From positions 51,769-115,768 of the forward strand of contig CAINMV010000023.1 of NCBI GenBank assembly GCA_903850915.1: 64,000 nt of DNA, read 5' to 3'. The stretch comes from an uncultured Bacteroidota bacterium (GTDB lineage Bacteria; Bacteroidota; Bacteroidia; UKL13-3). Shown in pieces: positions 8,392-43,189 of this stretch (positions are counted from its first letter, which is position 1; each line of letters begins with the position of its first letter). The notes under the pieces are model-generated. The model saw only the letters and a program-made list of their open reading frames with translations. It searched no databases and was not told where the DNA came from. Made by a program: the position numbers and the translations under genes.

Positions 8392-11300
8392 ATGAATTTG
8401 AAACGTAAAGCATTATCTTTAATTGTTTTAATGACCTTGGCTTTTTCTTTAAAAGCCAATAATATCAAAGGAATTCATAGAATTACTATTGGAATCCACG
8501 TTGATTCTCCGGCAGTAGATTCAAATAAAATCTACAAAACCAACATCAAGTTAAAGTCGCCTAAAAACCTTACGACCACAACAGAATTAGATACATTAAG
8601 CGGTGGATTTGTTAGCAGAACACGCTTAGGTTCCAACCCTATTGGCCCTCCTCGTTTCTTAACCTTGGATGAATACCTAGATGAAAGCAGAAAACAAGGC
8701 GTTAACGATTATTTCAAAAAAAGATCCTTACAAGACGAATTCGTAAAAGGTGGTGGATTGCTTCCTTCGTTAAATTTGCCTCCTAACCCCATCACTAGTT
8801 GGCTTGGAGGAACAGTAGATTTGCATCCACAAGGCAGTGCCGAACTTATTTTTGGAATTAACAGCAACAAAATAAACAATCCAGCACTAAGTCCTAAACA
8901 ACGTCATGTAACGCAGTTTGACTTTGACCAAAACATCCAATTAAATCTTACTGGAAACATTGGTGATAAAATTAAGATTAACGCCATCAACGATACCAAA
9001 GCTATTTTCGATTTTGACAATATCTTCAAATTAGATTACAACGGTAAAGAAGATGAGATTATTAAAAAAATTGAACTAGGTAATGTTGGGCTTCCTCTAA
9101 ACAGTAATCTAATCAACCCAGGGCAATCACTTTTTGGTGTAAAGTTAGCGTTGCAATTTGGCAGACTTAATGTAACAACGATTGTCACCCAAAACAAAGG
9201 GAAGTCCACCACCACTGAATTTACTGGTGGAGCACAAACCACCAATTTCGATATCACCGCAGACAATTACGATGCCAACCGCCATTATTTCTTGGGTCAG
9301 TTTTTTAGAGAACATTATGACCAATGGCTCAATCGAATTCCGTTGGTGAACTCGGCAGTACAAATTAACAGAGTAGAAGTATGGATTACCAATAGAAGTT
9401 CGACCTATTCTGAGGCCCGCGATGTGCTTGCCTTTACAGACTTGGGAGAAGGCAATCCGTTCAATCCAACAAATATAACCTCTAAAAGCTACAAAGCCAC
9501 TGATAACTATAATAACAATCTTTACAGTAAAATTTATAACGATAAGAATTTACGTAATTCGAATAACGTTATTAATCAACTTAGTAGCGCTTATACCGAT
9601 ATGGTTTCAGGAGTTGACTATCAACTCCAGACTTATTCGAAACGACTAACAGAACAGGAATATACCTTAAACTCAAAGTTAGGATACATCTCTTTAAATT
9701 CCCCATTAAACAATGGAGAAGTATTGGCTGTAGCTTACGAATACACCTATAATGGCCAAGTTTTTAAAGTAGGTGAATTTAGTACAGAACTTCAGAACGA
9801 CTCTAACTCAAACAAGGTGCTTTTTGTTAAATTACTGAAAGGGTTCAACGTTCGTCCAGATTTACCGACATGGAAGTTGATGATGAAAAATATCTATTCC
9901 TTGAATGCATATTCGGTGCAACAAAAAGACTTTAAACTCAATATCATTTATAAAGATGAAGCCACTGGAACAGAATTCAACTTCATCCCTGCCAAGTCGG
10001 AAGAAGCTGTTTATCAAATCCCTTTAATAAAAGTACTCAATCTTGATAACGTAAATTCACAGCAAGACAATGTAAGTGACGGTGTTTTTGACTTTATTGA
10101 AGGAGTGACCATATTATCTTCCAATGGTCGAATTATTTTTCCATGCCTTGAGCCCTTCGGAAGTTATCTTTCCACAACTAAAAAAATTCTAGACCCGGTT
10201 ACCTTAAAGACGTATTCATTTCAAAGCCTATACGATTCCACCAAATTTGCTGCACAACAAGATGCGCGTCACAATCGTTTTTATTTGAGAGGAAGCTATC
10301 AGGGAAGTGCTAGCAATGAGATCTCGTTAAATGCATTCAACATTCCAAAAGGATCGGTAAAAGTTACCGCGGGCGGAGCTCCATTGCGAGAGGGAGTGGA
10401 CTATAGTGTAGATTACCTTATTGGAAAAGTGAAAATTATAAACCTAAGTTTACTGCAATCTGGTGCAGTAATTAAAGTAGTAGCAGATAATAATAATCTT
10501 TTTAATACTCAACAAAAAAGTTTAATTGGAACGCGATTAGATTATAAAATCAGCAAAGACTTTGTGGTTGGAAGCACCTTCCTTAAGTTAACAGAACGCC
10601 CACTAACCCAAAATGTATCGGCTGGAGACGAGCCATTAGCAAATACAATTATTGGAGTTGATGGAACCTTTAAATCTGACTCTCGTTTTATTACAAAATT
10701 AATTGATAAAATTCCCTTTATTCAAACCAAGGAGATATCAAGTGTGACCTTAGCCGCAGAATATGCCAAAATAATTCCAGGAGTGCCTCGGTCGTTAGAC
10801 AAAACCAAAAAAGGATTTTCATATATCGACGACTTTCAAGGTGCAGAAGCGCCATACGATTTGCGTACACCAAATGCTTGGTATACCGCAAGCACACCGC
10901 AAGGAAACCCAACAGAATTCCCAACTGGCGGCAGTCATGGACTAGAAAATAGATTTAATACTGCACGATTGTCATGGTATTTTGTTGATCAATTTACCTT
11001 CTTTGGAGGTACCCCGCCATCAAATATTTCCAATGCCGTTCTCGATGATCCTTACCAACGCTTAATTTTACAGAAAGAGGTTTATCCAGACAAACAATTG
11101 GCACAAACCACGGCAACCAACCTACAAAGTTTAGATATTGCCTTTAACCCCAACCGCCGTGGTGCTTATAATTTTAATGTTGATGGACTTAATAGTGATG
11201 GAACTTTAAAAAACCCAAAGAATAATTGGGGTGGCATCATGCGAAAAATTGAAACCAACGATTTTGAAGCAGCCAACATAGACTATATCAGTGTGTGGGT

Positions 11301-14300
11301 AATGGACCCTTTTTACAAAAACCCTGGCAACAGTGGCGATTTGTTGATACAACTTGGAAATGTATCCGAGGATATTTTACCAGATGGAAGAAAAAGTTTC
11401 GAACATGGATTGCCAAAATCAGCGCAAAAAACACATGTAGATACCACTACTTGGGGTATTGTTTCTAAGCTTTCTCCTATTGTAAATGCTTTCGATAATG
11501 ATGAGACAGCCCGTGAATATCAAGACATCGGTTTAGATGGGTTAAATGATATAGAAGAACGAACCTTTTACGATACCTCTTATGTTGCCAAGGTGAAAGC
11601 TAAATTTGGCCTTAATTCCACTGCCTATTACAATGCCGAGCAAGATCCAAGTGCTGATAACTATAAGTATTATTTAGGTCCAGACCAGGATAATGCCAAT
11701 GCAAACATTATCGATCGTTACCGTTTTATTAACAATGGAGATGGTAATTCTCCTACCAATGCACAATCCAAAGCCAAAACAGGCTATGATAACTCAGCAT
11801 ATACATCTACACCAGATGATGAAGATATCGATCGCGACTTTTTGATGAATACCAACGAAGACTACTTCCAGTATCGCGTTAAGTTAGATCCGAATATGTT
11901 AGTTCCCGGACAGAACTTTGTTACCGACAAGCAGCTGCGTACGGTTGCTGTTAGCAGCGGAACGCAACAAATTTATTGGTATCAATTAAAAATTCCGGTT
12001 CAACAATTTGAGAAAAAATTCGGTAGTATCAACGACTTTAAATCTATTCGATTCATTCGTATGATATTAAAAGGCTTTCAAGATAGTGTGGTATTGCGTT
12101 TAGGCGAATTTCAATTGGTTAGAAGTGAATGGCGCAAGTGTACCCAATCCTTGCGTGACCCTATTCAAAACATCCCAAGCAGTGGTAAAGGTAATACTCG
12201 CTTTGATGTAACTACAGTAAATATTGAAGAAAACAGCAAAAGACAACCTATAAATTATGTTATACCTCCGGGTATAAATCGTCAGCTCGACCCTAGCAAT
12301 CCACAATTTGTGCAGCAAAACGAGCAGTCGCTTTCTATGATTGTTTGCAATATGGAAGATGATGATTTGCGTGGCGCCTTCAGAAATACCCAATACGACT
12401 TCAGAAATTACAAGCATATTCGCATGTTCACACATGCCGAGGAGTTTCAAGGACAAGCATTAAATGACGACGAGCTTTGGGCTTTCATTCGATTGGGCAT
12501 CGATTATACCAATAACTATTACGAGTATAGTTTCCCTCTAAAAGTTACCAGAGCTGGTCAAAATACAGCAGAGCAAGTATGGCCAGATTACAACCACATG
12601 GACTTGGTCATTGAATATCTTGCTGCACTCAAGCAAGAGCGAGAGTTAAACTCAGCCTCACTTACGCAGCCGTATTATTCGAGTTTACATCCGGGCTATA
12701 AAATTGTTGGAACACCCGATATCAGTTCCTTAAAAATAATTTGTATTGGAGTTAGAAACCCAAAAGACGATGGACGAAGCCAATGCGGTGAAGTTTGGTT
12801 TAATGAGCTCCGATTGGAAGAATTCAACAACAATGGGGGTTGGGCAGCAGAGGGAAGAGCCGATATAAAACTTGCTGATTTTGGAAATGTCAGACTCTCT
12901 TCTCATATTCATACCTATGGCTATGGAGCTTTGGATAAAAAACTGAATGAAAGAAGTCGCGATGATGTGAGAGGATATGCGTTTCAGTCGAATTTCGAAT
13001 TAGGTAAATTTTTTCCACTCAAAGCAGGTGTAAATATCCCATTCGCACTTAGCTATAGTGAAGATGTAATTCGCCCGCATTTTAACCCTTTAAACCCGGA
13101 TGTGCCGCTAGAACAAGCTTTGCGCACAGCGGGAGCTTTAAATAAAGAACTTGAAGCACAAATAAGATCAGCTGCCAACGACTACACTAGTCGTTATGGA
13201 TTAAACTTCATTAATATGCGCAAAACGCATATTGGCCCAAAAAGAGCTTTACCATGGAGTATTAGTAATTTTACCTTCTCTTACCAGTATAATAAAATTT
13301 ACAAGCATAATCCTACGGCATCGCGTATAGAGAATAAAAGTTGGAGAGGAATGGTAACCTATACCTATGCCTTGCCTAATGCTACACTAGCTCCATTTAC
13401 AAAACTTAGCAAATCGAAATGGTTAAAACTTATAACCGACTTCAATGTAAATTTACTTCCAAGTACTTTTAATTTCCGATTGGAAACGGATCGTAGGTAT
13501 AACGTATTACAGATGCGTAATACAGATTTTCGCAATAACAATAACGCTATTGTAGAGATTTTACCAACCTACGACAAAGATTTCACCATGAACCGAATCT
13601 ATGATTTGCAGTGGGCACTCACCAAATCTTTAAAGCTGAATTACAATGCAAACAATGGTTCACGAATTGCCGAACCACGTGGAGCCATAATTACCCAAGA
13701 GCAGCGCGATTCTATTCAGAAGAACTTCTTTACAGGTGGGGAAGTACGTAAGTTTAATCAGAATATTGGATTAAACTACCAAGTACCTTTCATGAAGTTT
13801 CCATTAACCGATTGGATAACAACGAACGTCAACTATAATATTAGTTATGATTGGACAGGTGCCGCTTTAGCATTGCTTCGCGACTCGCTAGGAAATCAAA
13901 TTCAGAATTCAAAAAACCTACAGATACAATCTCAATTGAATTTTATTCAGTTCTACAATAAGTCGAAGTTCCTGAAAAAAATAAATGAGCAAAGTGCAAA
14001 AGCTAATTCCAATGTACCAGCGGCACAAGAAGAAGAGGTGATTTCAAAAGGAAAGGGAAAGGGAAAATCGAAAGCTAAAATGACTGCCAAGCAAAAACGC
14101 GAAGAAGAAAAACGTATTGCAGAAGCGAAGAAAAAGAAAAAAGAAGAAGAGTCGAAATATTATCCTGTGGCACTGCGCGTGGTGGTTAAAGCCATTACGG
14201 GCGTAAAAAACGCAAGCTTCAACTACTCTGTAAATCAGGGCAGTGGTGTACCGGGTTTCCTTCCCGCTCCCAACAATTTCGGACAAAACATTTCATTACT

Positions 14301-15597
14301 AGCTCCAGGCTGGGATTTTATTTTTGGGAATCAAATTGACACCAATTACTTATATAATTCCGCACGTAAAAATTGGATCAGCAACCGTTCGGAAATGAAC
14401 AACCCCTATTCTATTACACGAACCACAAAAACGGATGGTCGTATAACCTTTGAGCCTCTTACCGACTTCCGAATTGACATTTCCTTCAATCGCTCACAAG
14501 CATTTAATGAATCAGGTATTTTTAAGTTTGACACTGTTGAGCAGTTTAATGATTATAGAGTTCAAAATCCGCTGCAAGGAGGAACATTTAGTACGAGTTA
14601 CATCATGTTAGGTACCGCATTCCAAAAAGATATTGTAACCAATAGCACCAACACTTCTCCTATCTTCAAACAATTTGAAAACAATAGATATACCATTTCT
14701 CAGCGTTTACAAACCGCGGAAGGAAGAACCACAGGTGTAGATTCAATTACAAACTATCCAAGAGGATATAGTAAGCAGTCACAAGATGTTGTATTATTAG
14801 CCTTCCTTTCCGCATATTCTGGCAAAAATGCAACGACTTTTTCGCTGGATCGTTTCCCTACAATTCCATTGCCTAATTGGCGTTTTAATTATAACGGACT
14901 GTCAAAATTAAAATCGGTGCAGAAGTATTTTAACGGCATTACTCTAACTCACAGTTATTCATGTACGTATAGCACTCAATATAACTCGAGTGTAGTAACC
15001 GGTATTGACTCTGCGCATGATTATATCCCGAATTTAATTATCCGTGGAGTTTCATTAAGTGAGCGACTTGCGCCATTAATTGGTGTTGATATCACCACAA
15101 AGAACAGTATGACCCTTGGTGCTCGATATAACCAAGATAGAACATTGGCAATGCAAATTGCATCCAAATCATTATCGGAAAGCAAAACGCGAGACTTTAC
15201 ATTTAGCTTTGGCTATCGTGCCAATCAAATATATTTACCAATCAAATATCAAGGCAAGCAAATATTCCTAGAAAATGATATGAATATTAAGTTAGATATT
15301 AGTTTTAGAGATAATCTTGTAATTGTTAGACGCATGGATGTTGGTGCTGACCAAGCCGCTAGCGGCAGTAAAATCGTTACGCTTCGACCAAATATTGACT
15401 ATATGATGAATCAGAATTTGAACTTGCAGCTCTTCTTTGAAATGAATATCACCAATCCGCATGTGTCGAATCAATTTCCAACTAACATTTCCAAAGGAGG
15501 AATTAAAATTCGTTACACACTCGACGAGAATTTCTTGAAAAACCAAACACAAAGTGGAGGAAAAAAATCGAAAAAAGGGACAAAACAGATGTTTTAA
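8392..15597 (+). CDS. sprA: T9SS outer-membrane translocon SprA/Sov
   Basis: 2401 aa; FDFDQNIQ, G.EDEIIKKIELGNV, YDANRHYFL, LGNVSEDILPDGRK, GEVWFNELRL motifs. Confidence 0.96.
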   Translation: MNLKRKALSLIVLMTLAFSLKANNIKGIHRITIGIHVDSPAVDSNKIYKTNIKLKSPKNLTTTTELDTLSGGFVSRTRLGSNPIGPPRFLTLDEYLDESRKQGVNDYFKKRSLQDEFVKGGGLLPSLNLPPNPITSWLGGTVDLHPQGSAELIFGINSNKINNPALSPKQRHVTQFDFDQNIQLNLTGNIGDKIKINAINDTKAIFDFDNIFKLDYNGKEDEIIKKIELGNVGLPLNSNLINPGQSLFGVKLALQFGRLNVTTIVTQNKGKSTTTEFTGGAQTTNFDITADNYDANRHYFLGQFFREHYDQWLNRIPLVNSAVQINRVEVWITNRSSTYSEARDVLAFTDLGEGNPFNPTNITSKSYKATDNYNNNLYSKIYNDKNLRNSNNVINQLSSAYTDMVSGVDYQLQTYSKRLTEQEYTLNSKLGYISLNSPLNNGEVLAVAYEYTYNGQVFKVGEFSTELQNDSNSNKVLFVKLLKGFNVRPDLPTWKLMMKNIYSLNAYSVQQKDFKLNIIYKDEATGTEFNFIPAKSEEAVYQIPLIKVLNLDNVNSQQDNVSDGVFDFIEGVTILSSNGRIIFPCLEPFGSYLSTTKKILDPVTLKTYSFQSLYDSTKFAAQQDARHNRFYLRGSYQGSASNEISLNAFNIPKGSVKVTAGGAPLREGVDYSVDYLIGKVKIINLSLLQSGAVIKVVADNNNLFNTQQKSLIGTRLDYKISKDFVVGSTFLKLTERPLTQNVSAGDEPLANTIIGVDGTFKSDSRFITKLIDKIPFIQTKEISSVTLAAEYAKIIPGVPRSLDKTKKGFSYIDDFQGAEAPYDLRTPNAWYTASTPQGNPTEFPTGGSHGLENRFNTARLSWYFVDQFTFFGGTPPSNISNAVLDDPYQRLILQKEVYPDKQLAQTTATNLQSLDIAFNPNRRGAYNFNVDGLNSDGTLKNPKNNWGGIMRKIETNDFEAANIDYISVWVMDPFYKNPGNSGDLLIQLGNVSEDILPDGRKSFEHGLPKSAQKTHVDTTTWGIVSKLSPIVNAFDNDETAREYQDIGLDGLNDIEERTFYDTSYVAKVKAKFGLNSTAYYNAEQDPSADNYKYYLGPDQDNANANIIDRYRFINNGDGNSPTNAQSKAKTGYDNSAYTSTPDDEDIDRDFLMNTNEDYFQYRVKLDPNMLVPGQNFVTDKQLRTVAVSSGTQQIYWYQLKIPVQQFEKKFGSINDFKSIRFIRMILKGFQDSVVLRLGEFQLVRSEWRKCTQSLRDPIQNIPSSGKGNTRFDVTTVNIEENSKRQPINYVIPPGINRQLDPSNPQFVQQNEQSLSMIVCNMEDDDLRGAFRNTQYDFRNYKHIRMFTHAEEFQGQALNDDELWAFIRLGIDYTNNYYEYSFPLKVTRAGQNTAEQVWPDYNHMDLVIEYLAALKQERELNSASLTQPYYSSLHPGYKIVGTPDISSLKIICIGVRNPKDDGRSQCGEVWFNELRLEEFNNNGGWAAEGRADIKLADFGNVRLSSHIHTYGYGALDKKLNERSRDDVRGYAFQSNFELGKFFPLKAGVNIPFALSYSEDVIRPHFNPLNPDVPLEQALRTAGALNKELEAQIRSAANDYTSRYGLNFINMRKTHIGPKRALPWSISNFTFSYQYNKIYKHNPTASRIENKSWRGMVTYTYALPNATLAPFTKLSKSKWLKLITDFNVNLLPSTFNFRLETDRRYNVLQMRNTDFRNNNNAIVEILPTYDKDFTMNRIYDLQWALTKSLKLNYNANNGSRIAEPRGAIITQEQRDSIQKNFFTGGEVRKFNQNIGLNYQVPFMKFPLTDWITTNVNYNISYDWTGAALALLRDSLGNQIQNSKNLQIQSQLNFIQFYNKSKFLKKINEQSAKANSNVPAAQEEEVISKGKGKGKSKAKMTAKQKREEEKRIAEAKKKKKEEESKYYPVALRVVVKAITGVKNASFNYSVNQGSGVPGFLPAPNNFGQNISLLAPGWDFIFGNQIDTNYLYNSARKNWISNRSEMNNPYSITRTTKTDGRITFEPLTDFRIDISFNRSQAFNESGIFKFDTVEQFNDYRVQNPLQGGTFSTSYIMLGTAFQKDIVTNSTNTSPIFKQFENNRYTISQRLQTAEGRTTGVDSITNYPRGYSKQSQDVVLLAFLSAYSGKNATTFSLDRFPTIPLPNWRFNYNGLSKLKSVQKYFNGITLTHSYSCTYSTQYNSSVVTGIDSAHDYIPNLIIRGVSLSERLAPLIGVDITTKNSMTLGARYNQDRTLAMQIASKSLSESKTRDFTFSFGYRANQIYLPIKYQGKQIFLENDMNIKLDISFRDNLVIVRRMDVGADQAASGSKIVTLRPNIDYMMNQNLNLQLFFEMNITNPHVSNQFPTNISKGGIKIRYTLDENFLKNQTQSGGKKSKKGTKQMF

Positions 15598-16409: not shown

Positions 16410-19400
16410 ATGATACGTTTAAAAATTCTACTTGTAATATTCTTTTTTACCACAGCAACAATAGCTCAGAAATCATATTTTAGTGGTGAATTTAGAAGTA
16501 TAGAAAATCCATATTATTGGAAAAATAGAGTTCCTTTTACTGGATATTGGCAACAAGACGTTTCCTATCAAATAAAGGCAACACTATATGATAGTTTGGA
16601 TATGTTGGATGGAGAGCTAACGCTAACCTATTTCAATAATTCACCTGATGATTTGAATGAGGTATTCTTTCACTTATATCAAAACGCCTTCCAACCGGGC
16701 AGCTACTATGATAATCTTCAAAAGAATAATAATATAAAAACCGAATATGGCAAAAACGAAAAAGACAGAAAAGATGAAGTAGTGGAGTCTGTCCTAGTAA
16801 ATGGCGTCATGGTGAATCCTACCTTCGATAATACCATCATGCGTGTTAAACTTCCAAATGTACTTCATCCCAATGGAAATATCGTTTTTAAAATAAAATT
16901 CAAAAGCTACTTCGGTGATGGTGGCAACGTGCGACGTCGGATGAAAATGTTTCGTGACAACTGGGGAAACAAACAATATGATGGGGTTCATTGGTATCCT
17001 CGTATCTGCGTTTATGACCGTAAATTCGGATGGGAAACAGACCAACATCTTGGGCGAGAATTTTATGGCGATTATGGAACCTATGATGCGGAACTCACCT
17101 TGCCATCAAAATATGTGAATGAAGCCACTGGAGAGCTTATCAATGAAAAAGAAGTCTTACCCGATGACCTTCGTGCTAAATTAGATGTAAAAAACTTCGC
17201 GACCAAAAAAGCGGATGTGAAACCTGAATCTATTATGCCAACACAAGGCTGGCGTACCTGGAAATACCATGCTGTTAATGTGCACGATTTTGCATTTACC
17301 TGCGACCCAACCTATCGCATCTCTGAGTCGTCGTGGAATGGAATTCGATGTATTGGCATTGTGCAAGAACCACATGCCGCGGGTTGGCAAAATAGTGGTG
17401 TACTTGTGGCCGACATAATTAAAACATACAGCAACGATATTGGCATGTATGCCTATCCAAAGATGGTAGCTGCAGACGCACGCGATGGCATGGAATATCC
17501 GATGCTTACGCTCGATGGCGGATCTAGCCCTAGTTATACTAATTTGCTCAGCCATGAAATAGGCCACAACTGGTTCTTTGGTATGGTTGGAAATAATGAA
17601 ACGTATCGTGCTTGTCTTGACGAAGGATTTACTCAGTTTTTAACTTCATGGTATATGGTTAAACAAGAGCAACGCAAAGAAGCCTTAGTGAAACAAAATG
17701 AAGGCCTGTCGGTTGTTAAAAAGAAGACCTTGGGTACTCGGTATTTAAATCGCTATTCAACTTCGATTCCACAACGCGAGAGTGTAGCTTATATGGGATA
17801 TTTAATGGATGCAATAAACGATAATGATGAAGTAATTAACCAGCATAGCGATGGATTTAATGGAGCCGTAAATCATGGAGGTGGCTATCGTCACGTATAT
17901 TACAAAACAGCAACCATGCTATGGAATTTGCAATATGTGCTAGGAGATGAATTGTTTCTAGCTACGATGCAAAATTATTTCAATGAATTTAAAATATGTC
18001 ACCCCTATGTAGAAGATTTCCGAAATAGTGTTATTCACTATACGCATGTGGATTTGAATTGGTTTTTCGACCAATGGTTCGAAACCAACAAGCACATTGA
18101 CTATGCCATTAAAAGCATCAAAAATAGCAAAGGCGACAGCTTTGAAATTACCTTTCAGCGCATTGGGCGCATGCAAATGCCTATCGATTTCACGGTAAAA
18201 ACGAACGACGGAAAGAACTTGGATTTCCATATTCCCAACACCTATTTCGTTAAAAAAACTACCGCTACAATATTGCCTTTTTGGAAAGGATGGGATCTTT
18301 TACAACCAACATATACCTGTACTATTTTAGTTCCAGGCGGTATCGATGACATAGAAATTGATCCAACGCATCGTTTGGCTGATATCAACTTTATGAACAA
18401 TACATTACGTTGTCCGGTGAAATTCAACTTTGATCATCAATTGCAAAATCCGAACGACATGTACCATTATATATTAAAATGGCGCCCCGATTTTTGGTGG
18501 AATGGTTTGGATGGCATAAAAGTTGGCGTGCATGCTAATGGTGGTTATATAAATAGATTTCATGTTTGGGATGCTACGCTTTGGTATAATACAGGAATGC
18601 TCCAATCAAATGAAATGCAATTTCCAATCAATTATTCGGTGAACTACCGAAATGCGATTGGAAAAAACCTGGGGTGGAATTTCTCTACACGATATCTGGA
18701 TGGTTTATTTGCCAATAAATTGGGGATATCAAAAACCAACAACGACTATACTTTCTACGCTAATTTCAATACATTGTACCGCACGCAAATCTTCTATTAT
18801 AAAAATGGCAAACAAACAGACTCGCATTTAATATATCCTGAGCTTTGGAGAGAACAAAAATGGAATAACTTTATTAATATCGGAATCAACAAACCATATA
18901 GTTACAGCCATGGTTATGCATCACAGAATTTAAATTTGCGCACAAGTGCTTTAGGTAGTGATTATCTATATGGTAACCTTAGTTATACCCATATTGACAA
19001 TATTGCAATAAAAAAACTAGATTTCAAAGTTCGAGTTTTTGGGCAACTCGGATTTAACACACCAGCACCAGAAAGCGCTCTGATGCTTGCCGGTGCTAAT
19101 AATGAGGAATTAATGGAAAGTAAATTTACGAGAAGTATTGGTTTTGTTCCGAATTCATGGTCTGGATTTGGCTCAGAAATCAATCATTTCCAACAAGGTG
19201 GAGGTTTAAACATACGCGGGTTTGCAGGTTATAAAGCTCCCGTTGGCGACACTACAAATCAACATTTACTATATAAAGGTAATAGCGGGTTAGCCGTAAA
19301 TGCTGAACTAGACCTCGATCGTTTATTGAAATTCGAACCAAAATTTCTACGTAATTGGTTGCATTTAGATTTTTATGGTTTTGCGGATGCAGGTTATATT

Positions 19401-19616
19401 GCAAACAAACCAATAACAGGAAAATGGTTCTTTGCCAATGCTTTGCGCGCCGATGCAGGAGTTGGCACAGCATTAACCATAAAACGTTGGTGGAACTTGA
19501 GCAATATCAAGCCGTTAACCATTCGATTTGATATGCCATTTATTATAAATCCAGCACCCGCTAGCAGCAATAATCTAGAGTTCAGATATGTAGTTGGTTT
19601 TGGAAGATGTTTCTAA
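16410..19616 (+). CDS. M1-family zinc aminopeptidase with C-terminal beta-barrel (Omp85-like motifs)
   Basis: Signal peptide, GMEYP, HEIGH-X18-E, YYKTA; C-terminal ~380 aa of amphipathic strands ending VVGFGRCF. Confidence 0.88.
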   Translation: MIRLKILLVIFFFTTATIAQKSYFSGEFRSIENPYYWKNRVPFTGYWQQDVSYQIKATLYDSLDMLDGELTLTYFNNSPDDLNEVFFHLYQNAFQPGSYYDNLQKNNNIKTEYGKNEKDRKDEVVESVLVNGVMVNPTFDNTIMRVKLPNVLHPNGNIVFKIKFKSYFGDGGNVRRRMKMFRDNWGNKQYDGVHWYPRICVYDRKFGWETDQHLGREFYGDYGTYDAELTLPSKYVNEATGELINEKEVLPDDLRAKLDVKNFATKKADVKPESIMPTQGWRTWKYHAVNVHDFAFTCDPTYRISESSWNGIRCIGIVQEPHAAGWQNSGVLVADIIKTYSNDIGMYAYPKMVAADARDGMEYPMLTLDGGSSPSYTNLLSHEIGHNWFFGMVGNNETYRACLDEGFTQFLTSWYMVKQEQRKEALVKQNEGLSVVKKKTLGTRYLNRYSTSIPQRESVAYMGYLMDAINDNDEVINQHSDGFNGAVNHGGGYRHVYYKTATMLWNLQYVLGDELFLATMQNYFNEFKICHPYVEDFRNSVIHYTHVDLNWFFDQWFETNKHIDYAIKSIKNSKGDSFEITFQRIGRMQMPIDFTVKTNDGKNLDFHIPNTYFVKKTTATILPFWKGWDLLQPTYTCTILVPGGIDDIEIDPTHRLADINFMNNTLRCPVKFNFDHQLQNPNDMYHYILKWRPDFWWNGLDGIKVGVHANGGYINRFHVWDATLWYNTGMLQSNEMQFPINYSVNYRNAIGKNLGWNFSTRYLDGLFANKLGISKTNNDYTFYANFNTLYRTQIFYYKNGKQTDSHLIYPELWREQKWNNFINIGINKPYSYSHGYASQNLNLRTSALGSDYLYGNLSYTHIDNIAIKKLDFKVRVFGQLGFNTPAPESALMLAGANNEELMESKFTRSIGFVPNSWSGFGSEINHFQQGGGLNIRGFAGYKAPVGDTTNQHLLYKGNSGLAVNAELDLDRLLKFEPKFLRNWLHLDFYGFADAGYIANKPITGKWFFANALRADAGVGTALTIKRWWNLSNIKPLTIRFDMPFIINPAPASSNNLEFRYVVGFGRCF

Positions 19617-19663: not shown

Positions 19664-20506
19664 TTATTTTTTGTTGATTCTGAAACTCCAACCGAAAACA
19701 ACATTGCGTTGAAGAAATATAAAGTGTTGAGAAGCTTTGTCAGCTTCGTCCATAGTGGTGCGAATATCCGGCATGTTTATATAGCCCCCTTTGAATTCAC
19801 TTTGTATAAAAAAGTGTTTGCCAAAGTTTACCCCTAAACCAATAACAGCACTTACCCCATAGCCTGCCAAATGAAACTCATCATATCTAGGCTTCCCTAA
19901 AAGCGTGGTGTTTGTTCGGGGATATAAAATTCCAACACCTAAGCCTTCGGTAAAACTAACCGCTATATTTAAAGAAGTTAACTTCTTTAAATTATAAATC
20001 TCATCAATTCTTCTAAATTCAGTATTAATGTAATTTAAGCCATCGGTATGCTCAAATTGTAAGAAGTTTGAGGTCAATTTAATGTCTTCATTTTTATAAT
20101 TTTTATTGAAAGTAGAATCTTGCATGTTTATGGTGCCATTAATTTGAACCACTTGATTTGTTTTCATCACATATTTCATGTGGTCTTCGCCCATTGAAAT
20201 ACTATAATGTTCATTAATGTAATACCCAAAACGATTATTGTATTGCGGAATGGTAACTGTTGTTGGATTAAAATACAATGGAATTGAAAAGCGCGACTGG
20301 CGATCCTTAGCAACCACTTTTGACAAAATAAAATCGTAATCAACTCCTTTAAAATGAATGTCGGAGACACTATAAATGCTTCGATTCCAACCCCAATAAA
20401 GATAGAATTTTCCTTTATTTACATTGTTGTTTTTGGGTTTTTCCTTTGCAAAAGCAGCTATATAGCTACAAAAAAAGATGGTGGTAAAAAATAGAAAAGA
20501 TTTCAT
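19664..20506 (-). CDS. Conserved Bacteroidota hypothetical protein, probable outer-membrane beta-barrel
   Basis: Signal peptide; alternating aromatic strands KFYLYWGWNRS, EHTDGLNY, VVFGWSF. Confidence 0.65.
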   Translation of the reverse strand: MKSFLFFTTIFFCSYIAAFAKEKPKNNNVNKGKFYLYWGWNRSIYSVSDIHFKGVDYDFILSKVVAKDRQSRFSIPLYFNPTTVTIPQYNNRFGYYINEHYSISMGEDHMKYVMKTNQVVQINGTINMQDSTFNKNYKNEDIKLTSNFLQFEHTDGLNYINTEFRRIDEIYNLKKLTSLNIAVSFTEGLGVGILYPRTNTTLLGKPRYDEFHLAGYGVSAVIGLGVNFGKHFFIQSEFKGGYINMPDIRTTMDEADKASQHFIFLQRNVVFGWSFRINKK

Positions 20507-20578: not shown

Positions 20579-22426
20579 ATGAAATTCCTACTTTCTTTAA
20601 TTTTACTCAGTAGCTTTAGTTTAAATATATTTTCACAATCGCAGAAAAAAATTATAGTTCCTCTTGCTGCCGCTATAAATGCAGCTGCAATTCCGGACGG
20701 GTTTGATGTAAATATACTTACAATAAAGTCTCAACCGCATCCTGCTTCTGGGTCTGAGCTCTTAAAAAGGCAATTAAACGAAGAACGACAGGTAAAACAG
20801 CAAAAACCAATTTCATTAAACAAAACAAATACTACCAATAACGCGGCCACGCCTATCCTACTAAAAGTGTTTCAAGCAAACTTTGCGAGTAGCATTCCAA
20901 ACGATAATCATATGGCTATTTCTAATGGTGGAAAAATAGTAAGTGTGGTAAATAGTAATGTGCGCATGTACGATGAAACCGGAACACTTATTTTCACAAA
21001 GGGACTTAGTGCCTTTAGCAGTGCAATTGGAAACTATGCGAACATTTCCGATCCTCGGGTACTTTACGATCAAGAATCTGATCGCTTCATAATGTTGTAT
21101 TTCAGCGGATACTACGCTACAAATAGCACAATTATTGTTGGATTTAGCAAAACAAATGATCCAACTGCACTTTGGAATTTCTATAAGGTCCCTGGGAATC
21201 CTTATAATGACACCTCTTGGAGTGATTACCCAATTCTTACCTTAACAAAAGGTGAACTTTTCTTTACCTTTAACTTATTACAAGATGGTATTGTTGATTG
21301 GCGTAAGGCCTTTAAACAAAGTATTATTTGGCAGGTCGATAAGCAAAAAGGCTATGCTGGCGATTCCCTAATAACAAAAGTCTGGGGCGATATAAAATAT
21401 AATGGTAGGCCATTATGGAACATTTGTCCGGCACAAGGTGGCAGCGCGCTTCAAAACAACGGTGTTTATTTTGTTTCAGTTCGACCTAGCGACCTACAAA
21501 ATGATAGCGTATTTCTAACCTATTTAAGTGGCACTTTGGTAAGCAGCAGTCCTCAACTAACCACACGCGTATTCAAACAAAACAAAACCTATGGGTTGCC
21601 ACCAAATGTTCCAATGCCCAACAGAAATTACTTACAAACCAACGATGCACGTGTATTAAGTGCTACTATTGAGAACAACATGTTGCATTATGTTCAAAAC
21701 ACCATCGACACCACCTTTAACACAGCAGGCGTTTATTATGGACGAATTGCCAATCCACAAAACAGCAATCCTATACTTACCGCAACAATAATCCGCAACG
21801 ACACGATGGACTATGGCTACCCTTCAGTAGCCTATGTTGGCGGAGGTTTGACGGACAATAGTGTGATGATTACCTGTTCCCATACCTCAAAAAACATTAA
21901 ACCTGGCACATCTGTTTTTTATGCCGATCGATTAGGACAAATTTCATCGCAGCTAAGATGTAAGGATGGTGAAGGTTGGATTAACGCCTTAACAGATACA
22001 AACGAACGTTGGGGCGATTATACTGGCATACAACGAAAATACAATGAGGCAGGCATAGCTTGGCTTTGCGGATCTTACGGCGACCCATTAAGCGGATATT
22101 ATCGCACATGGATTTCGAAGGTGAAAAATAATGATTACAGCTTTGGAATCGCGCCTAAAATAGAAGAAACGAAACTAACGCAACTATATCCAAATCCCAC
22201 AAAAAACCTTGTAAATGTAGAGTTTGAAGCAACTAATAAATCAAATATTATTGCAGATGTATTTGATATAAATGGCAAGTACGTTGCGCATGTTTATGAA
22301 GATGCTGTGCATGATGGGCTAAACAGATTTACTTTCAACACCAATACCTTTAGCAAAGGGATTTACTTTTTAAAAATAACTACATCGGGTAAGACCATAG
22401 TAAATAAGAAATTTGTGGTAGACTAA
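20579..22426 (+). CDS. T9SS type A cargo protein of unknown function
   Basis: Signal peptide; DPRVLYD, WSDYP and RWGDY motifs; CTD LYPNP...KGIYFLKI...KKFVV. Confidence 0.85.
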   Translation: MKFLLSLILLSSFSLNIFSQSQKKIIVPLAAAINAAAIPDGFDVNILTIKSQPHPASGSELLKRQLNEERQVKQQKPISLNKTNTTNNAATPILLKVFQANFASSIPNDNHMAISNGGKIVSVVNSNVRMYDETGTLIFTKGLSAFSSAIGNYANISDPRVLYDQESDRFIMLYFSGYYATNSTIIVGFSKTNDPTALWNFYKVPGNPYNDTSWSDYPILTLTKGELFFTFNLLQDGIVDWRKAFKQSIIWQVDKQKGYAGDSLITKVWGDIKYNGRPLWNICPAQGGSALQNNGVYFVSVRPSDLQNDSVFLTYLSGTLVSSSPQLTTRVFKQNKTYGLPPNVPMPNRNYLQTNDARVLSATIENNMLHYVQNTIDTTFNTAGVYYGRIANPQNSNPILTATIIRNDTMDYGYPSVAYVGGGLTDNSVMITCSHTSKNIKPGTSVFYADRLGQISSQLRCKDGEGWINALTDTNERWGDYTGIQRKYNEAGIAWLCGSYGDPLSGYYRTWISKVKNNDYSFGIAPKIEETKLTQLYPNPTKNLVNVEFEATNKSNIIADVFDINGKYVAHVYEDAVHDGLNRFTFNTNTFSKGIYFLKITTSGKTIVNKKFVVD

Positions 22427-39988: not shown

Positions 39989-42900
39989 ATGACATCAAAA
40001 ACTTATCTTCTATTTTTTTTGTTTGGTTTGGCTTCAATAATAAGTTTTGGCCAACCACCAGCTGGGGCCTTAGCGGCAAATCCAAATATTATTTATTACG
40101 CTGGAGGAAGTTGCATCTTCTATGACATAAATAACAACCAATTACTATCGGTAGATGCCGTTGAAGCTGGTTGGTCAGCAACACCTGCAAAAGCTGCTTG
40201 GGTGGTTGTAACACCTAACAATGCAGGCTATTTCGAGTTTCCAAATTATTCTTCAAATATTCCTACATGCAATAATATTCAATATTTAGAGCCATTTTGG
40301 AAGTCAGATACAATATATAATGAATTGATATTGTTGACTGGTATTAACTCAACAGCGAAACTAATGTTTTACCCAACAAAAATAATATCTATCACAAATT
40401 ACGACTTTTCAAAAACATATATTGAGAACACAGATTATACAATAAGTGGAAAAACTGTAACTCAAAAATCAGCTCAAGTTTCATCAACTTTTATTCAAAA
40501 ATCAGGAGTCAAGGGAAATGGTCAATCAAATGGACTAATGAATACTGTGGCAACATCTTGGGTTTGTGTTACGTATATCGCAAATCGAAATGATTGGGTC
40601 GGTAATTCAATATTTAAAAACAAAAGCAATTTATTGCCTAAATCATATGCCAAACTAAAAAACAAATTACCGATTGTTATCGAAGCCTATGGAATGAGCA
40701 TTACTGCAGGACTTAATGTTAGTGGATTTGCAGGTGATGATAAAAACTTTACGCCAACGAAACCTTACATGCATAGCTACATAGATTTACTTGGCGTAGG
40801 ACTACACAACAAATTTGGAGGTTCGGTTAACATAATAAATGGATCGTGTGGAGGCAAAAATGCAGCGTGGATTAACCAATACTGTACAAGCATGGTGGTT
40901 CCGAATATACCAGATTTAGTGATTCTGGATATGGGGATGAACGACATTTGGGGCACCTCGAATGATTCATTTAGAGTTAGGATGCAATCGTGTATTAATA
41001 AAATAAAATCTTCAAATCCAAACACTGAATTTATTTTAATTGGCAACATGCTTCCTGATATCAATTCGCAGGGGGCACCTTCGAATGGAGAAAATTTAAT
41101 GTATGGCTTTTTACAACAATTGAAATCGTTAGAATCGAATGGCATTGCCGTTTTCGATATGACGACGATGTCAGATTCAATTTACAAAAGAAAAGGCGCT
41201 ATTCATTGCACATCGAATGCTCTTCATCCAAATGATTATTTAGCACGTTGGTATGCGCAAGGTCTAATACAAATTTTCGATGATTCAATTCCGAATAATG
41301 TGCGCCATACCTATTACGTTAATAATACTGGAAATAATAGCGATGGACTTTCCAAGTCTACAGCCTGGACTTCAATAGACAAAATAAATGCAACAAATTT
41401 CAATCCTGGTGATAGTATATTATTTGAAGGTGGACTAAGCTTCTCTGGAAATATTGAGCTTGACAATTTGGATGGCAATGACGAAAAAAACCCTTTAGTA
41501 TTTAGCACCTATGGCATCGGCAATTCAAAAATATCTACCAAAGTAAACAACAAATGTGGATTTAAAGCTACAAATTCGCAAGGCATTCATATCATTAATT
41601 TAATATTTCAAGGACCCGGAAATGGAACTTTAAAGGATATTGATGGCATTTCGTTTTATACCACGAACTTAACGGGATATCTATCAAACATATTAATCAA
41701 AAACGTGGAAGTAAGTGCCTTTGGATATTGTGGTATTCGATTTTACTCCAACTGGTCAGCAATAACTAAGGGAGGATTTAGCGATGTCATAATAGATAGC
41801 TGCATCGTTCATGATTGTAGGGAAAATGGCATCGTGACTTTTGGATATGATGACCAGAGTTCAAATTTCTATCAACACAAAAAATTTAAAATATCAAACA
41901 CACAAGTTTTTAATATCACAGGATATTCAGCATCTTCCCATAAAGGCAGTGGCATCGTATTATCTCAAATAGATTCTTCGATAATTGAAAAATGTGTTGC
42001 CTATAATAATGGAACAGGTAATTCAGCATGTGGTGGTCCAGGTGGAATTTGGGTTTATTCTGCCAATCATATTACTATTCAAAACTGCGAGTCACACCAC
42101 AATTCTTCAGGAGTAGCATCAGGTTGTGATGGATTAGGATTTGATTTAGATGGTGGTGTTACAAATTCGACATTACAATATTGCTATTCTCATGATAATG
42201 ATGGAGCCGGAATTCTATTAGGTAATTTTGCTGGAGCAAGACCTTGGGGCAATAACACAGTTAGGTATAACCTCAGTGTAAACGATGCAAGAACTAACAA
42301 CAGCGCTGTTACATTATTTACTGCTACAAATACCGCTTGGAACGGACTTCAATTTTACAACAATACTATCTATGTAACACCCTCCATTAAGAACAAAACA
42401 CCCGAATTTGGAGCATTTCAAATGACGAACTTCGGATTGAGTATGAATGGAGTTGAGTGCTATAACAATATTTTCCAAACGATTGGTGGCTTACCTTTAA
42501 TAACAGTTCCTACCGTCTTCACCTCTCAGAATCCTAAATTTATAGGAAACTTATATTTCAGTTCCGGTCAATTATTTTCGATTACCTATGGCTATAAATA
42601 TGGTACTTTATCGGACTTTAGATCCGCTGGGATTTATTGTGAGAAAAACGGATCCATTAATACAGGATTAGATTCTAACCCTCAACTTATTAATGCTAAC
42701 AGATCTCCACTAACTGTATTTCCATTACCCATTGACTCTTTGAATGCATTTAAAATACCAGCAAATTCCTTAGCCAAAGATGCAGGTTTAGATTTAAAAA
42801 CCTGCTTTGGGATTGACCCTGGTGTGAGGGACCTATGGAATAATTCTCTTCCTAGAGGATTTTTTTTTGATATTGGAGCCTTTGAATTTCCAGTTCAAAT

Positions 42901-43189
42901 CAACGGACTTTCAAATTCGAATTCACTAAATTCTAAGATTTCCATTTATCCAAATCCTTCAAATAGTGATAATATTATATTAGATTTTGGAAATAAGATT
43001 GAAGAATCGGTTGCAGTGGAAATGAAAAACTCTGCTGGACAAGATATTTTTCGCAAAGAATTTTCTACATTTAATTATTCAAATAATAAAATACTAATTC
43101 CAGTTCATGGACTGCCGAACGGTATTTATTTAATAAAAGTGTATAATGGTATTTTTATATACTATTCTAAGCTTGTCATTAACCGATAA
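39989..43189 (+). CDS. Multimodular T9SS cargo: SGNH-like esterase + right-handed beta-helix + CTD
   Basis: YGMSIT, GMND, HPND; then YYVNNTGNNSDG..AW, PGDSILF and N/G-rich coils; CTD IYPNP. Confidence 0.8.
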   Translation: MTSKTYLLFFLFGLASIISFGQPPAGALAANPNIIYYAGGSCIFYDINNNQLLSVDAVEAGWSATPAKAAWVVVTPNNAGYFEFPNYSSNIPTCNNIQYLEPFWKSDTIYNELILLTGINSTAKLMFYPTKIISITNYDFSKTYIENTDYTISGKTVTQKSAQVSSTFIQKSGVKGNGQSNGLMNTVATSWVCVTYIANRNDWVGNSIFKNKSNLLPKSYAKLKNKLPIVIEAYGMSITAGLNVSGFAGDDKNFTPTKPYMHSYIDLLGVGLHNKFGGSVNIINGSCGGKNAAWINQYCTSMVVPNIPDLVILDMGMNDIWGTSNDSFRVRMQSCINKIKSSNPNTEFILIGNMLPDINSQGAPSNGENLMYGFLQQLKSLESNGIAVFDMTTMSDSIYKRKGAIHCTSNALHPNDYLARWYAQGLIQIFDDSIPNNVRHTYYVNNTGNNSDGLSKSTAWTSIDKINATNFNPGDSILFEGGLSFSGNIELDNLDGNDEKNPLVFSTYGIGNSKISTKVNNKCGFKATNSQGIHIINLIFQGPGNGTLKDIDGISFYTTNLTGYLSNILIKNVEVSAFGYCGIRFYSNWSAITKGGFSDVIIDSCIVHDCRENGIVTFGYDDQSSNFYQHKKFKISNTQVFNITGYSASSHKGSGIVLSQIDSSIIEKCVAYNNGTGNSACGGPGGIWVYSANHITIQNCESHHNSSGVASGCDGLGFDLDGGVTNSTLQYCYSHDNDGAGILLGNFAGARPWGNNTVRYNLSVNDARTNNSAVTLFTATNTAWNGLQFYNNTIYVTPSIKNKTPEFGAFQMTNFGLSMNGVECYNNIFQTIGGLPLITVPTVFTSQNPKFIGNLYFSSGQLFSITYGYKYGTLSDFRSAGIYCEKNGSINTGLDSNPQLINANRSPLTVFPLPIDSLNAFKIPANSLAKDAGLDLKTCFGIDPGVRDLWNNSLPRGFFFDIGAFEFPVQINGLSNSNSLNSKISIYPNPSNSDNIILDFGNKIEESVAVEMKNSAGQDIFRKEFSTFNYSNNKILIPVHGLPNGIYLIKVYNGIFIYYSKLVINR

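Follow-up and report, generated by a model that had tools for sequence, protein, structure and literature searches.

The gene at 16410..19616 on the + strand of a 64,000-nucleotide stretch of DNA from an uncultured Bacteroidota bacterium (GenBank assembly GCA_903850915.1, contig CAINMV010000023.1; the whole stretch is referred to here as the window) is a single open reading frame (ORF), stop codon included. Its 1068-amino-acid (aa) product carries an M1 peptidase followed by an Omp85-like β-barrel in one polypeptide. The protein is probably a POTRA-less barrel of the Omp85 type that would reside in the outer membrane, with a competent M1 aminopeptidase hung periplasmically from its first strand. 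Such M1–barrel fusions are a widespread but unstudied design, labelled in databases simply as “M1 metallopeptidase”.

According to this explanation, the protein would be exported by the Sec pathway via its signal peptide, and the C-terminal ~380 residues would insert in the outer membrane as a diverged, POTRA-less barrel of the BamA/TamA/FhaC superfamily. The N-terminal ~640 residues, comprising the M1 enzyme, would then hang from barrel strand 1 on the periplasmic side, where the enzyme may trim N-terminal residues from oligopeptides or unfolded chains, its presumed substrates, that reach the periplasm under the outer membrane. Periplasmic exopeptidases are a general feature of peptide nutrition in Bacteroidota.

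The gene had been read as an M1–Omp85 fusion in an original prediction made from the sequence by eye, and every motif listed there, including IRGF at 19212-19223, was found at its given position. The features of the gene are as follows.

16410..19616, + strand: whole gene, M1 peptidase/Omp85-like barrel fusion (ORF, stop codon included)
16410..16466, + strand: signal peptide, residues 1-19 (from reading of the sequence)
16467..18101, + strand: M1 aminopeptidase region, residues 20-564, made up of an N-terminal part and the catalytic domain (PF01433 at 376-556)
17487..17501, + strand: GMEYP, residues 360-364, variant exopeptidase motif
17553..17567, + strand: HEIGH, residues 382-386, zinc site
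17553..17624, + strand: HEIGH-X18-E zinc site with H382, E383, H386 and E405 (sequence and conservation)
17898..17900, + strand: Y497, candidate catalytic tyrosine (conserved in 72/74 homologues)
18102..18467, + strand: linker, residues 565-686, a β-rich segment and the conserved junction IDPxxRLADxNxxNN ... VKFNF, without POTRA
18468..19613, + strand: predicted 16-stranded β-barrel, residues 687-1068 (AlphaFold2 with DSSP, and hhalign)
19056..19283, + strand: predicted loop 6 equivalent of 76 aa (residues 883-958), joining strands 11 and 12 (AlphaFold2 with DSSP)
19212..19223, + strand: IRGF, residues 935-938, within GGGLNIRGF (residues 930-938) of the loop 6 equivalent
19380..19394, + strand: FADAG, an (F/G)xDxG motif, residues 991-995, in predicted strand 13 (984-998)
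19452..19466, + strand: DAGVG, residues 1015-1019, conserved glycines in predicted strand 14 (1013-1024)
19521..19538, + strand: IRFDMP, residues 1038-1043, in predicted strand 15
19590..19613, + strand: VVGFGRCF, residues 1061-1068, a β-signal-like C-terminal end with a terminal Phe

The barrel was modelled with AlphaFold2 from a 52-sequence alignment of residues 660-1068, and its strands were assigned by DSSP. The prediction is a barrel of 16 long strands, with a mean pLDDT (predicted local distance difference test) of 88.4 and a pTM (predicted template modelling score) of 0.85. Successive strands are separated by gaps of 3, 3, 12, 4, 2, 2, 26, 2, 8, 2, 76, 15, 14, 11, and 13 residues. IRGF lies in the 76-residue loop that joins predicted strands 11 and 12, while FADAG falls inside predicted strand 13, DAGVG in strand 14, and IRFDMP in strand 15. 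The signature of Omp85 proteins consists of (V/I)RG(Y/F) at the tip of loop 6 (L6) and (F/G)xDxG on strand 13, connected by an Arg-Asp salt bridge, and also includes a conserved strand-14 Gly (Maier et al. 2015, PMC4490367). In the model, both the predicted topology and the places of the motifs match this “lid-lock” layout.

Conservation was counted in 74 full-length homologues with a mean column identity of 40%. The loop-6 motif is kept at R936 (74/74), G937 (70/74), and position 938 (F or Y in 71/74), and the strand-13 motif at F991 (74/74), D993 (74/74), and G995 (73/74). G1017 and G1019, candidate counterparts of the strand-14 glycine of BamA/TamA, are present in all 74 sequences and the C-terminal F in 69 of them. 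Judged by sequence conservation, the barrel motifs exceed chance, because they are kept in nearly all of the homologues at this level of identity.

Homology to Omp85 becomes visible when profiles are compared with one another. A reference profile was built from 29 PF01103-positive barrels, taken from 30 loci in a sample of 41 Bacteroidota genomes, and compared by hhalign with profiles of the window barrel family. When stand-alone relatives were added to the M1-fused barrels (139 sequences), the comparison gave 89.5% probability (P 2e-6, score 55.5), and when a sister family of Balneolales-type fusions was included as well (165 sequences), the figure was 92.9% (P 3.6e-7, score 60.7, 346 columns). 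The alignment pairs NLRGY with lRGY, YlFxDAG with FxeaG, and the C-terminal RxF with GQxF. Controls with the 165-row profile gave far smaller values: 15 FadL-family barrels scored 16.8 (0.2%), nine Porin_O_P barrels 25.1 (2.1%), and the reversed template 20.2. Sixty block shuffles averaged 21.6 with a maximum of 41.6, and none of them (0/60) attained 60.7. The profile-level similarity, as far as these sequence comparisons reach, is thus specific to Omp85 barrels.

The Balneolales-type family also serves as a bridge. It consists of M1–barrel fusions whose 24 database relatives are all labelled M1 only, and its profile aligns with that of the window barrel family at 99.7% (hhalign, P 1.9e-25). 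One member, L130, is matched by PF01103 itself (E 6.1e-6, 26.4 bits, above the cut-off of 24). As a lead only, PF01103 is the sole named family in the top 30 language-model look-alikes from the ESM Atlas. The 16-strand topology predicted by AlphaFold2, the Omp85-specific profile match, and the sister-family bridge bear out the claim of an Omp85-like barrel, and the combined sequence and model evidence supports its placement as a strongly diverged member of the Omp85 superfamily that is invisible to Pfam-based censuses.

Several results weigh against this assignment or the orientation proposed below. Neither PF01103 nor the ShlB model PF03865 matches the protein at E ≤ 1, and PF01103 matches none of 18 barrels of the family (0/18 at E ≤ 10). 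A sequence-profile search of the PDB with the 18-member barrel family returned no match at E ≤ 10, and no Omp85 chain appears among the best 60 of 73 PDB matches to the profile of the 74 homologues. M1-fused barrels only (125 sequences, <60% identity) reached just 46% in hhalign (P 2.1e-4, score 40.3), the best block shuffle (score 41.6) was itself assigned a probability of 52.9%, and just two of the 26 sister-family members match PF01103 at E ≤ 0.1, one of them above cut-off. Two predicted periplasmic turns, of 15 and 11 residues, are long for an Omp85 barrel, and the orientation rests on homology and a predicted model. The failure of PF01103 and PDB searches and the 46% for M1 barrels alone could be taken to mean that the protein carries an unrelated 16-strand barrel, in which the RGF and FxDxG motifs arose by convergence. 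Both motifs are nonetheless topologically placed as in Omp85 (loop 11-12 and strand 13), the collinear match of 346 columns vanishes on reversal, on shuffling, and when FadL or Porin_O_P barrels are compared instead, and PF01103 is reached through the sister family. A convergent barrel is therefore regarded as very improbable.

The peptidase portion of the diverged Omp85 fusion is recognized more readily. PF01433 (Peptidase_M1) is the sole Pfam family matched by the protein, at residues 376-556 (E 1.3e-10; 41.7 bits, cut-off 27.7), and NCBIfam gives partial, weak matches to the pepN and LTA4H models. In the PDB, the profile of the 74 homologues detects E. coli PepN (2.9e-7) and LTA4H (1.5e-6), as well as ERAP2 and factor F3, and the best 60 of its 73 matches are all M1 enzymes. 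E405 lies exactly 18 residues beyond H386, and the zinc and catalytic set is kept at H382 (71/74), E383 (73/74), H386 (70/74), and E405 (72/74). An intact M1 catalytic domain, as originally claimed, is thus upheld by PF01433 above its cut-off, the presence of HEIGH-X18-E, and catalytic residues kept in 70-73 of the 74 sequences. Y497, likewise kept in 72/74, lies within the stretch aligning to PepN and is presumably the equivalent of the PepN/LTA4H catalytic tyrosine.

The canonical M1 exopeptidase motif is GxMEN. The motif here reads DGMEY, with M361 and E362 retained but D in place of the first G and Y in place of the N. This variant is itself conserved, with G360 in 70/74, M361 in 68/74, E362 in 70/74, and Y363 in 70/74 homologues. 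From such conservation, the M1 catalytic residues are judged to be under selection, and the protein is apparently an active zinc aminopeptidase.

The N-terminal sequence has the look of a type I signal peptide, with a predicted cut before Q20 and no lipobox Cys. Q20 is kept in at least 90% of the 74 homologues, and its position directly after the predicted cleavage site corresponds to the Bacteroidota “Q-rule”. Between enzyme and barrel, no POTRA was found: POTRA families have no Pfam match at E ≤ 1 in the protein, and residues 560-700 compared by hhalign with the POTRA regions of the 29 Omp85 reference proteins gave 0.2%. A domain for the type IX secretion system (T9SS) at the C-terminus likewise has no Pfam match in the protein at E ≤ 1, and the same Pfam library detects the T9SS tail PF18962 in the neighbor at 20579..22426. 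The earlier impression by eye that both POTRA and T9SS C-terminal domains are lacking agrees with these searches. In the model, residues 660-686 form a short helix and a 5-residue strand, VKFNF, which is followed by 12 residues (pLDDT about 90) that lead into strand 1. The barrel model is without a plug or linker helix.

To our knowledge, L6 enters from the outside and both ends of the barrel are periplasmic in all solved Omp85 structures, and PlpD is the only enzyme–Omp85 fusion to have been studied. In the model, the M1 domain would be placed under the periplasmic mouth of the barrel because the long loops (12, 26, 8, 76, 14, and 13 residues) fit that orientation and 12 ordered residues precede strand 1. 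The enzyme domain of PlpD is periplasmic (PMC11116518), and by analogy with this precedent, together with Omp85 topology and the short ordered link, the M1 enzyme is probably held at the periplasmic face of the outer membrane.

The original prediction left the choice among a self-anchored peptidase, a self-translocating one, and a periplasmic peptidase attached to a peptide pore. Anchoring with a periplasmic enzyme fits best, and self-translocation is disfavored by the 12-residue ordered link and the PlpD precedent. In a type V-like process, the barrel would export its own M1 domain to yield a cell-bound ectoenzyme. Cell-bound aminopeptidase activity in freshwater is classically credited to Bacteroidota, the habitat is freshwater with the gene present in lake and freshwater metagenome runs of several studies, and the protein bears neither a lipoprotein nor a T9SS signal as an alternative way out. 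Surface display was also the original model for PlpD and for enzyme–Omp85 fusions generally (Heinz & Lithgow 2014, PMC4104836). The stretch from VKFNF to strand 1 appears too short for threading through the barrel, however, and POTRA, plug, and linker helix are all lacking. A zinc enzyme of ~640 aa would, in addition, be a large passenger, and the periplasmic position of the PlpD enzyme speaks for the opposite side of the membrane. Surface display is possible, but unlikely.

The M1 enzyme and its barrel belong to a sizeable family. A total of 548 proteins of similar length are related to residues 660-1068, and all of the 120 listed carry PF01433 only; their source names are “M1 family metallopeptidase”, “aminopeptidase N”, or “hypothetical protein”. 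An exhaustive search of representative sequences gave 519 clusters at E ≤ 1e-3, and a search of one genome per species gave at least 568 loci that encode a relative. The 80 listed loci are all from metagenome-assembled or uncultured Bacteroidia (Flavobacteriales, Chitinophagales, and unclassified), and the M1 part lies upstream of the barrel in 78 of these 80 and in all 44 with full flanks. Among 301 evenly sampled Bacteroidota genomes, a match is found in 61, which represent 17 of 144 genera, and the full fusion is present in the source genome plus one other genome of its class. Within the source genome, the fusion gene is single-copy, being the sole match in a search with the barrel profile.

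Barrels without the M1 enzyme are also found. Stand-alone barrels of 400-440 aa occur in 49/49 genomes of one family and 4/4 of another; they have their own signal peptides and begin at strand 1. None of seven stand-alone relatives from databases has any Pfam match at E ≤ 0.01, and one of 12 from genomes shows a weak match to PF01103 (E 0.019). In genome G252, two stand-alone barrels lie in tandem (L125, 366-1670 and 1741-3054, both on the - strand). In five database proteins of 615-661 aa (P0233, P0235, P0237, P0238, and P0250), a signal peptide and a ~200-aa domain precede the same junction motif and barrel. Their ~200-aa domains have no Pfam match, and only those of P0237 and P0250 are detectably alike (24% identity).

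A FastTree phylogeny covered 84 of the 165 barrels, with 56 M1-fused barrels and 25 fragments left out, and was midpoint-rooted with long branches. The five proteins with ~200-aa domains group together (support 99) in a clade that lies within the M1-fused barrels, as does the stand-alone pair P0145/P0227. Because the variant clades nest among M1-fused barrels, the sequences suggest that the M1 part was lost or replaced in them, although the direction of change is not proven.

Two further kinds of sequence were encountered in the family. P0158 (425 aa, 22 member sequences), P0167, and P0142 have a signal peptide and the NPNYWKN motif, which in the M1 fusion lies at the N-terminus, fused straight to strand 1. 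They look like the fusion with residues ~40-685 deleted, and may be either a natural variant or an assembly artefact. P0241, in which a VWA domain precedes the barrel, was rejected as a real architecture, since what looks like the N-terminus of an inner-membrane, BatA-type protein abruptly meets the junction motif, so that the contig behind it is probably chimeric.

Known Omp85 proteins act as machines for protein insertion or translocation, and for a barrel with an invariant lid lock that would serve as the anchor of the M1 enzyme, a pore or quality-control role is also possible. As an open or gated peptide conduit, the barrel would feed extracellular oligopeptides to the tethered aminopeptidase as an “import-and-trim” device, a reading that is quite unlikely. 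If true, it may explain a share of the aminopeptidase activity bound to cells of uncultured freshwater Bacteroidota, and the stand-alone barrels of Balneolales would represent the pore alone. For quality control, the barrel would retain Omp85 activity on unfolded outer-membrane proteins, and the M1 enzyme would trim stalled or misfolded chains in the manner of BepA at BAM. No variation is seen in the lid-lock residues, a functional hallmark of Omp85 insertases and translocases, and the occurrence of stand-alone barrels in every sampled genome of one family implies that the barrel also has work to do by itself. Periplasmic quality control has also been proposed for the “Metallo” fusions by Heinz & Lithgow (PMC4104836). 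No POTRA is available for substrate binding, however, and no conserved neighbor ties the gene to BAM, chaperones, or proteases. M1 enzymes, moreover, are exopeptidases that act on short peptides. A quality-control device is decidedly unlikely.

The genomic context adds little to the anchored-enzyme explanation. Neighbors of the fusion gene in the window are SprA, an endonuclease III-like gene, a 280-aa secreted protein, a T9SS cargo, RsgA, and NamZ. SprA, the T9SS translocon, is just upstream (8392-15597, + strand, 2401 aa, PF14349 E 1.7e-174). A functional tie to the neighboring SprA/T9SS genes was considered and rejected, since the window neighbors, SprA included, recur in 1/44 loci with full flanks, namely that of the closest relative. 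The upstream genes that recur in 21-23 of 49 loci encode a membrane protein and NadC-like and RlmH-like proteins, and are housekeeping-like by eye.

Other genes of the window and the source genome may be mentioned briefly. The 280-aa protein (19664-20506, - strand) is convergent with the fusion gene, has an N-terminal signal-like sequence, has a counterpart only at locus L034, and has no Pfam match at E ≤ 0.001. The 615-aa product of 20579-22426 (+ strand) has PF18962, the T9SS sorting domain, as its sole Pfam match (residues 536-614), which leaves its N-terminal 530 aa without an assignment. A 1066-aa ORF at 39989-43189 (+ strand) is of near-equal length to the fusion and is not a barrel paralogue, given the single genome match of the barrel profile. 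PF01103 matches three other genes of the source genome (850, 794, and ~400 aa) and not the fusion gene. On contig C10 of that genome, a 397-aa secreted protein (L003, 1489-2682, - strand; PF01103 E 4.1e-4, below cut-off) may be a further Omp85 paralogue without POTRA, and shows no relation to the M1 barrel profile.

Sequencing runs place the window in freshwater. It was found nearly whole (at least 64% of sampled words) in 17 DNA runs from lake water, freshwater, riverine, or unlabelled samples, two of which may be the assembly's own source, and any part of it was found in 20 runs from 11 studies. Three metatranscriptome runs from three studies contain five pieces of 151-219 nucleotides inside the ORF, with 0-1 mismatches and from both the M1 and barrel parts. 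These give a weak hint that the fusion gene is transcribed; DNA carry-over could also produce such pieces, and uncovered parts of the gene are uninformative.

Among known enzymes, the fusion shares HExxH-X18-E, the Glu of the exopeptidase motif, the Tyr, and a PF01433 match above cut-off with M1 aminopeptidases such as PepN, LTA4H, and tricorn factor F3. It is very distant from them, with a best PDB E-value of 2.9e-7 even for the family profile, and it differs in having xGMEY rather than GxMEN and in being exported, as predicted from its signal peptide. The usual C-terminal helical domain of M1 enzymes appears to be swapped here for the β-rich linker and membrane barrel. In the same way, the barrel has in common with BamA, TamA, and FhaC its 16 predicted strands, a C-terminal aromatic residue, and the motifs (V/I)RG(Y/F) at the L6 tip and (F/G)xDxG on strand 13, but it lacks POTRA, and its sequence likeness to these proteins is visible only profile-to-profile.

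Ten Omp85/TpsB subfamilies were described by Heinz & Lithgow (2014, PMC4104836), including Patatin-like, Metallo (PF00149), WD40-like, Lipo, and noNterm. In that work, the words “aminopeptidase” and “peptidase” are absent from the main text, and PF01433 is absent from four supplementary files. In line with the original remark, the fusion is not among the subfamilies named there, and yet the WD40-like subfamily already pairs a different MA-clan peptidase with a barrel. An M1–Omp85 fusion was not found in the literature by a full-text search judged by titles and abstracts of the papers listed, with subscription journals outside its reach. As a side note on the Metallo subfamily, L163 (438-4271, - strand) encodes a 1278-aa Metallophos (PF00149)–Omp85 protein that exemplifies it; PF00149 is a phosphoesterase family in Pfam, while the 2014 paper (PMC4104836) calls it a metalloprotease.

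A zinc-peptidase domain on an Omp85 barrel is thus already on record, in the different architecture of the WD40-like subfamily. These proteins resemble the fusion in their N-terminal MA-clan zinc peptidase, Omp85 barrel, lack of POTRA, and common occurrence in Bacteroidota. Table S3 of Heinz & Lithgow (PMC4104836) gives the M1 structures 1z5h and 4kxd as the “best aminopeptidase hit” for the WD40-like cluster, and both are among the M1 enzymes matched in the PDB by the family profile. The WD40-like proteins differ in their TolB-like PD40 propeller between peptidase and barrel, in having an MA_2 domain of ~200 aa where the fusion has a full M1 enzyme, and in a barrel that Pfam detects; three Bacteroidota examples consist of Peptidase_MA_2, PD40, and PF01103. 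A specific kinship with the peptidase of this subfamily was rejected (hhalign 0.4%), and its barrel compares with the window barrel family at 87.4%, no better than other Omp85 barrels. No WD40-like protein was found in the source genome by a Pfam PF01103 scan. The stand-alone relatives recall the “noNterm” Omp85 proteins (PMC4104836) and Leptospira paralogues (PMC11358297), which are also POTRA-less barrels, but the published noNterm clusters are defined by PF01103 matches and the stand-alone relatives here are mostly PF01103-negative.

The closest counterpart in overall design is PlpD (“type Vd”), which likewise joins an N-terminal hydrolase to a C-terminal 16-strand Omp85 barrel in one polypeptide, and the periplasmic position of its enzyme domain (PMC11116518) is the orientation proposed for the window protein. 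PlpD consists of a patatin lipase, one POTRA, and a barrel detected by PF01103, whereas the window protein has an M1 enzyme, no POTRA, and a PF01103-negative barrel; neither the patatin nor the POTRA of the type Vd architecture is found in it by Pfam. The stand-alone barrels, the barrels with other N-terminal domains, and the sister fusion family provide natural variants for probing the barrel's own role. PlpD recently showed that the Omp85 scaffold can carry a periplasmic enzyme, and the M1–barrel family would be a second and much larger case, with a different enzyme, no POTRA, and a barrel hidden from Pfam.

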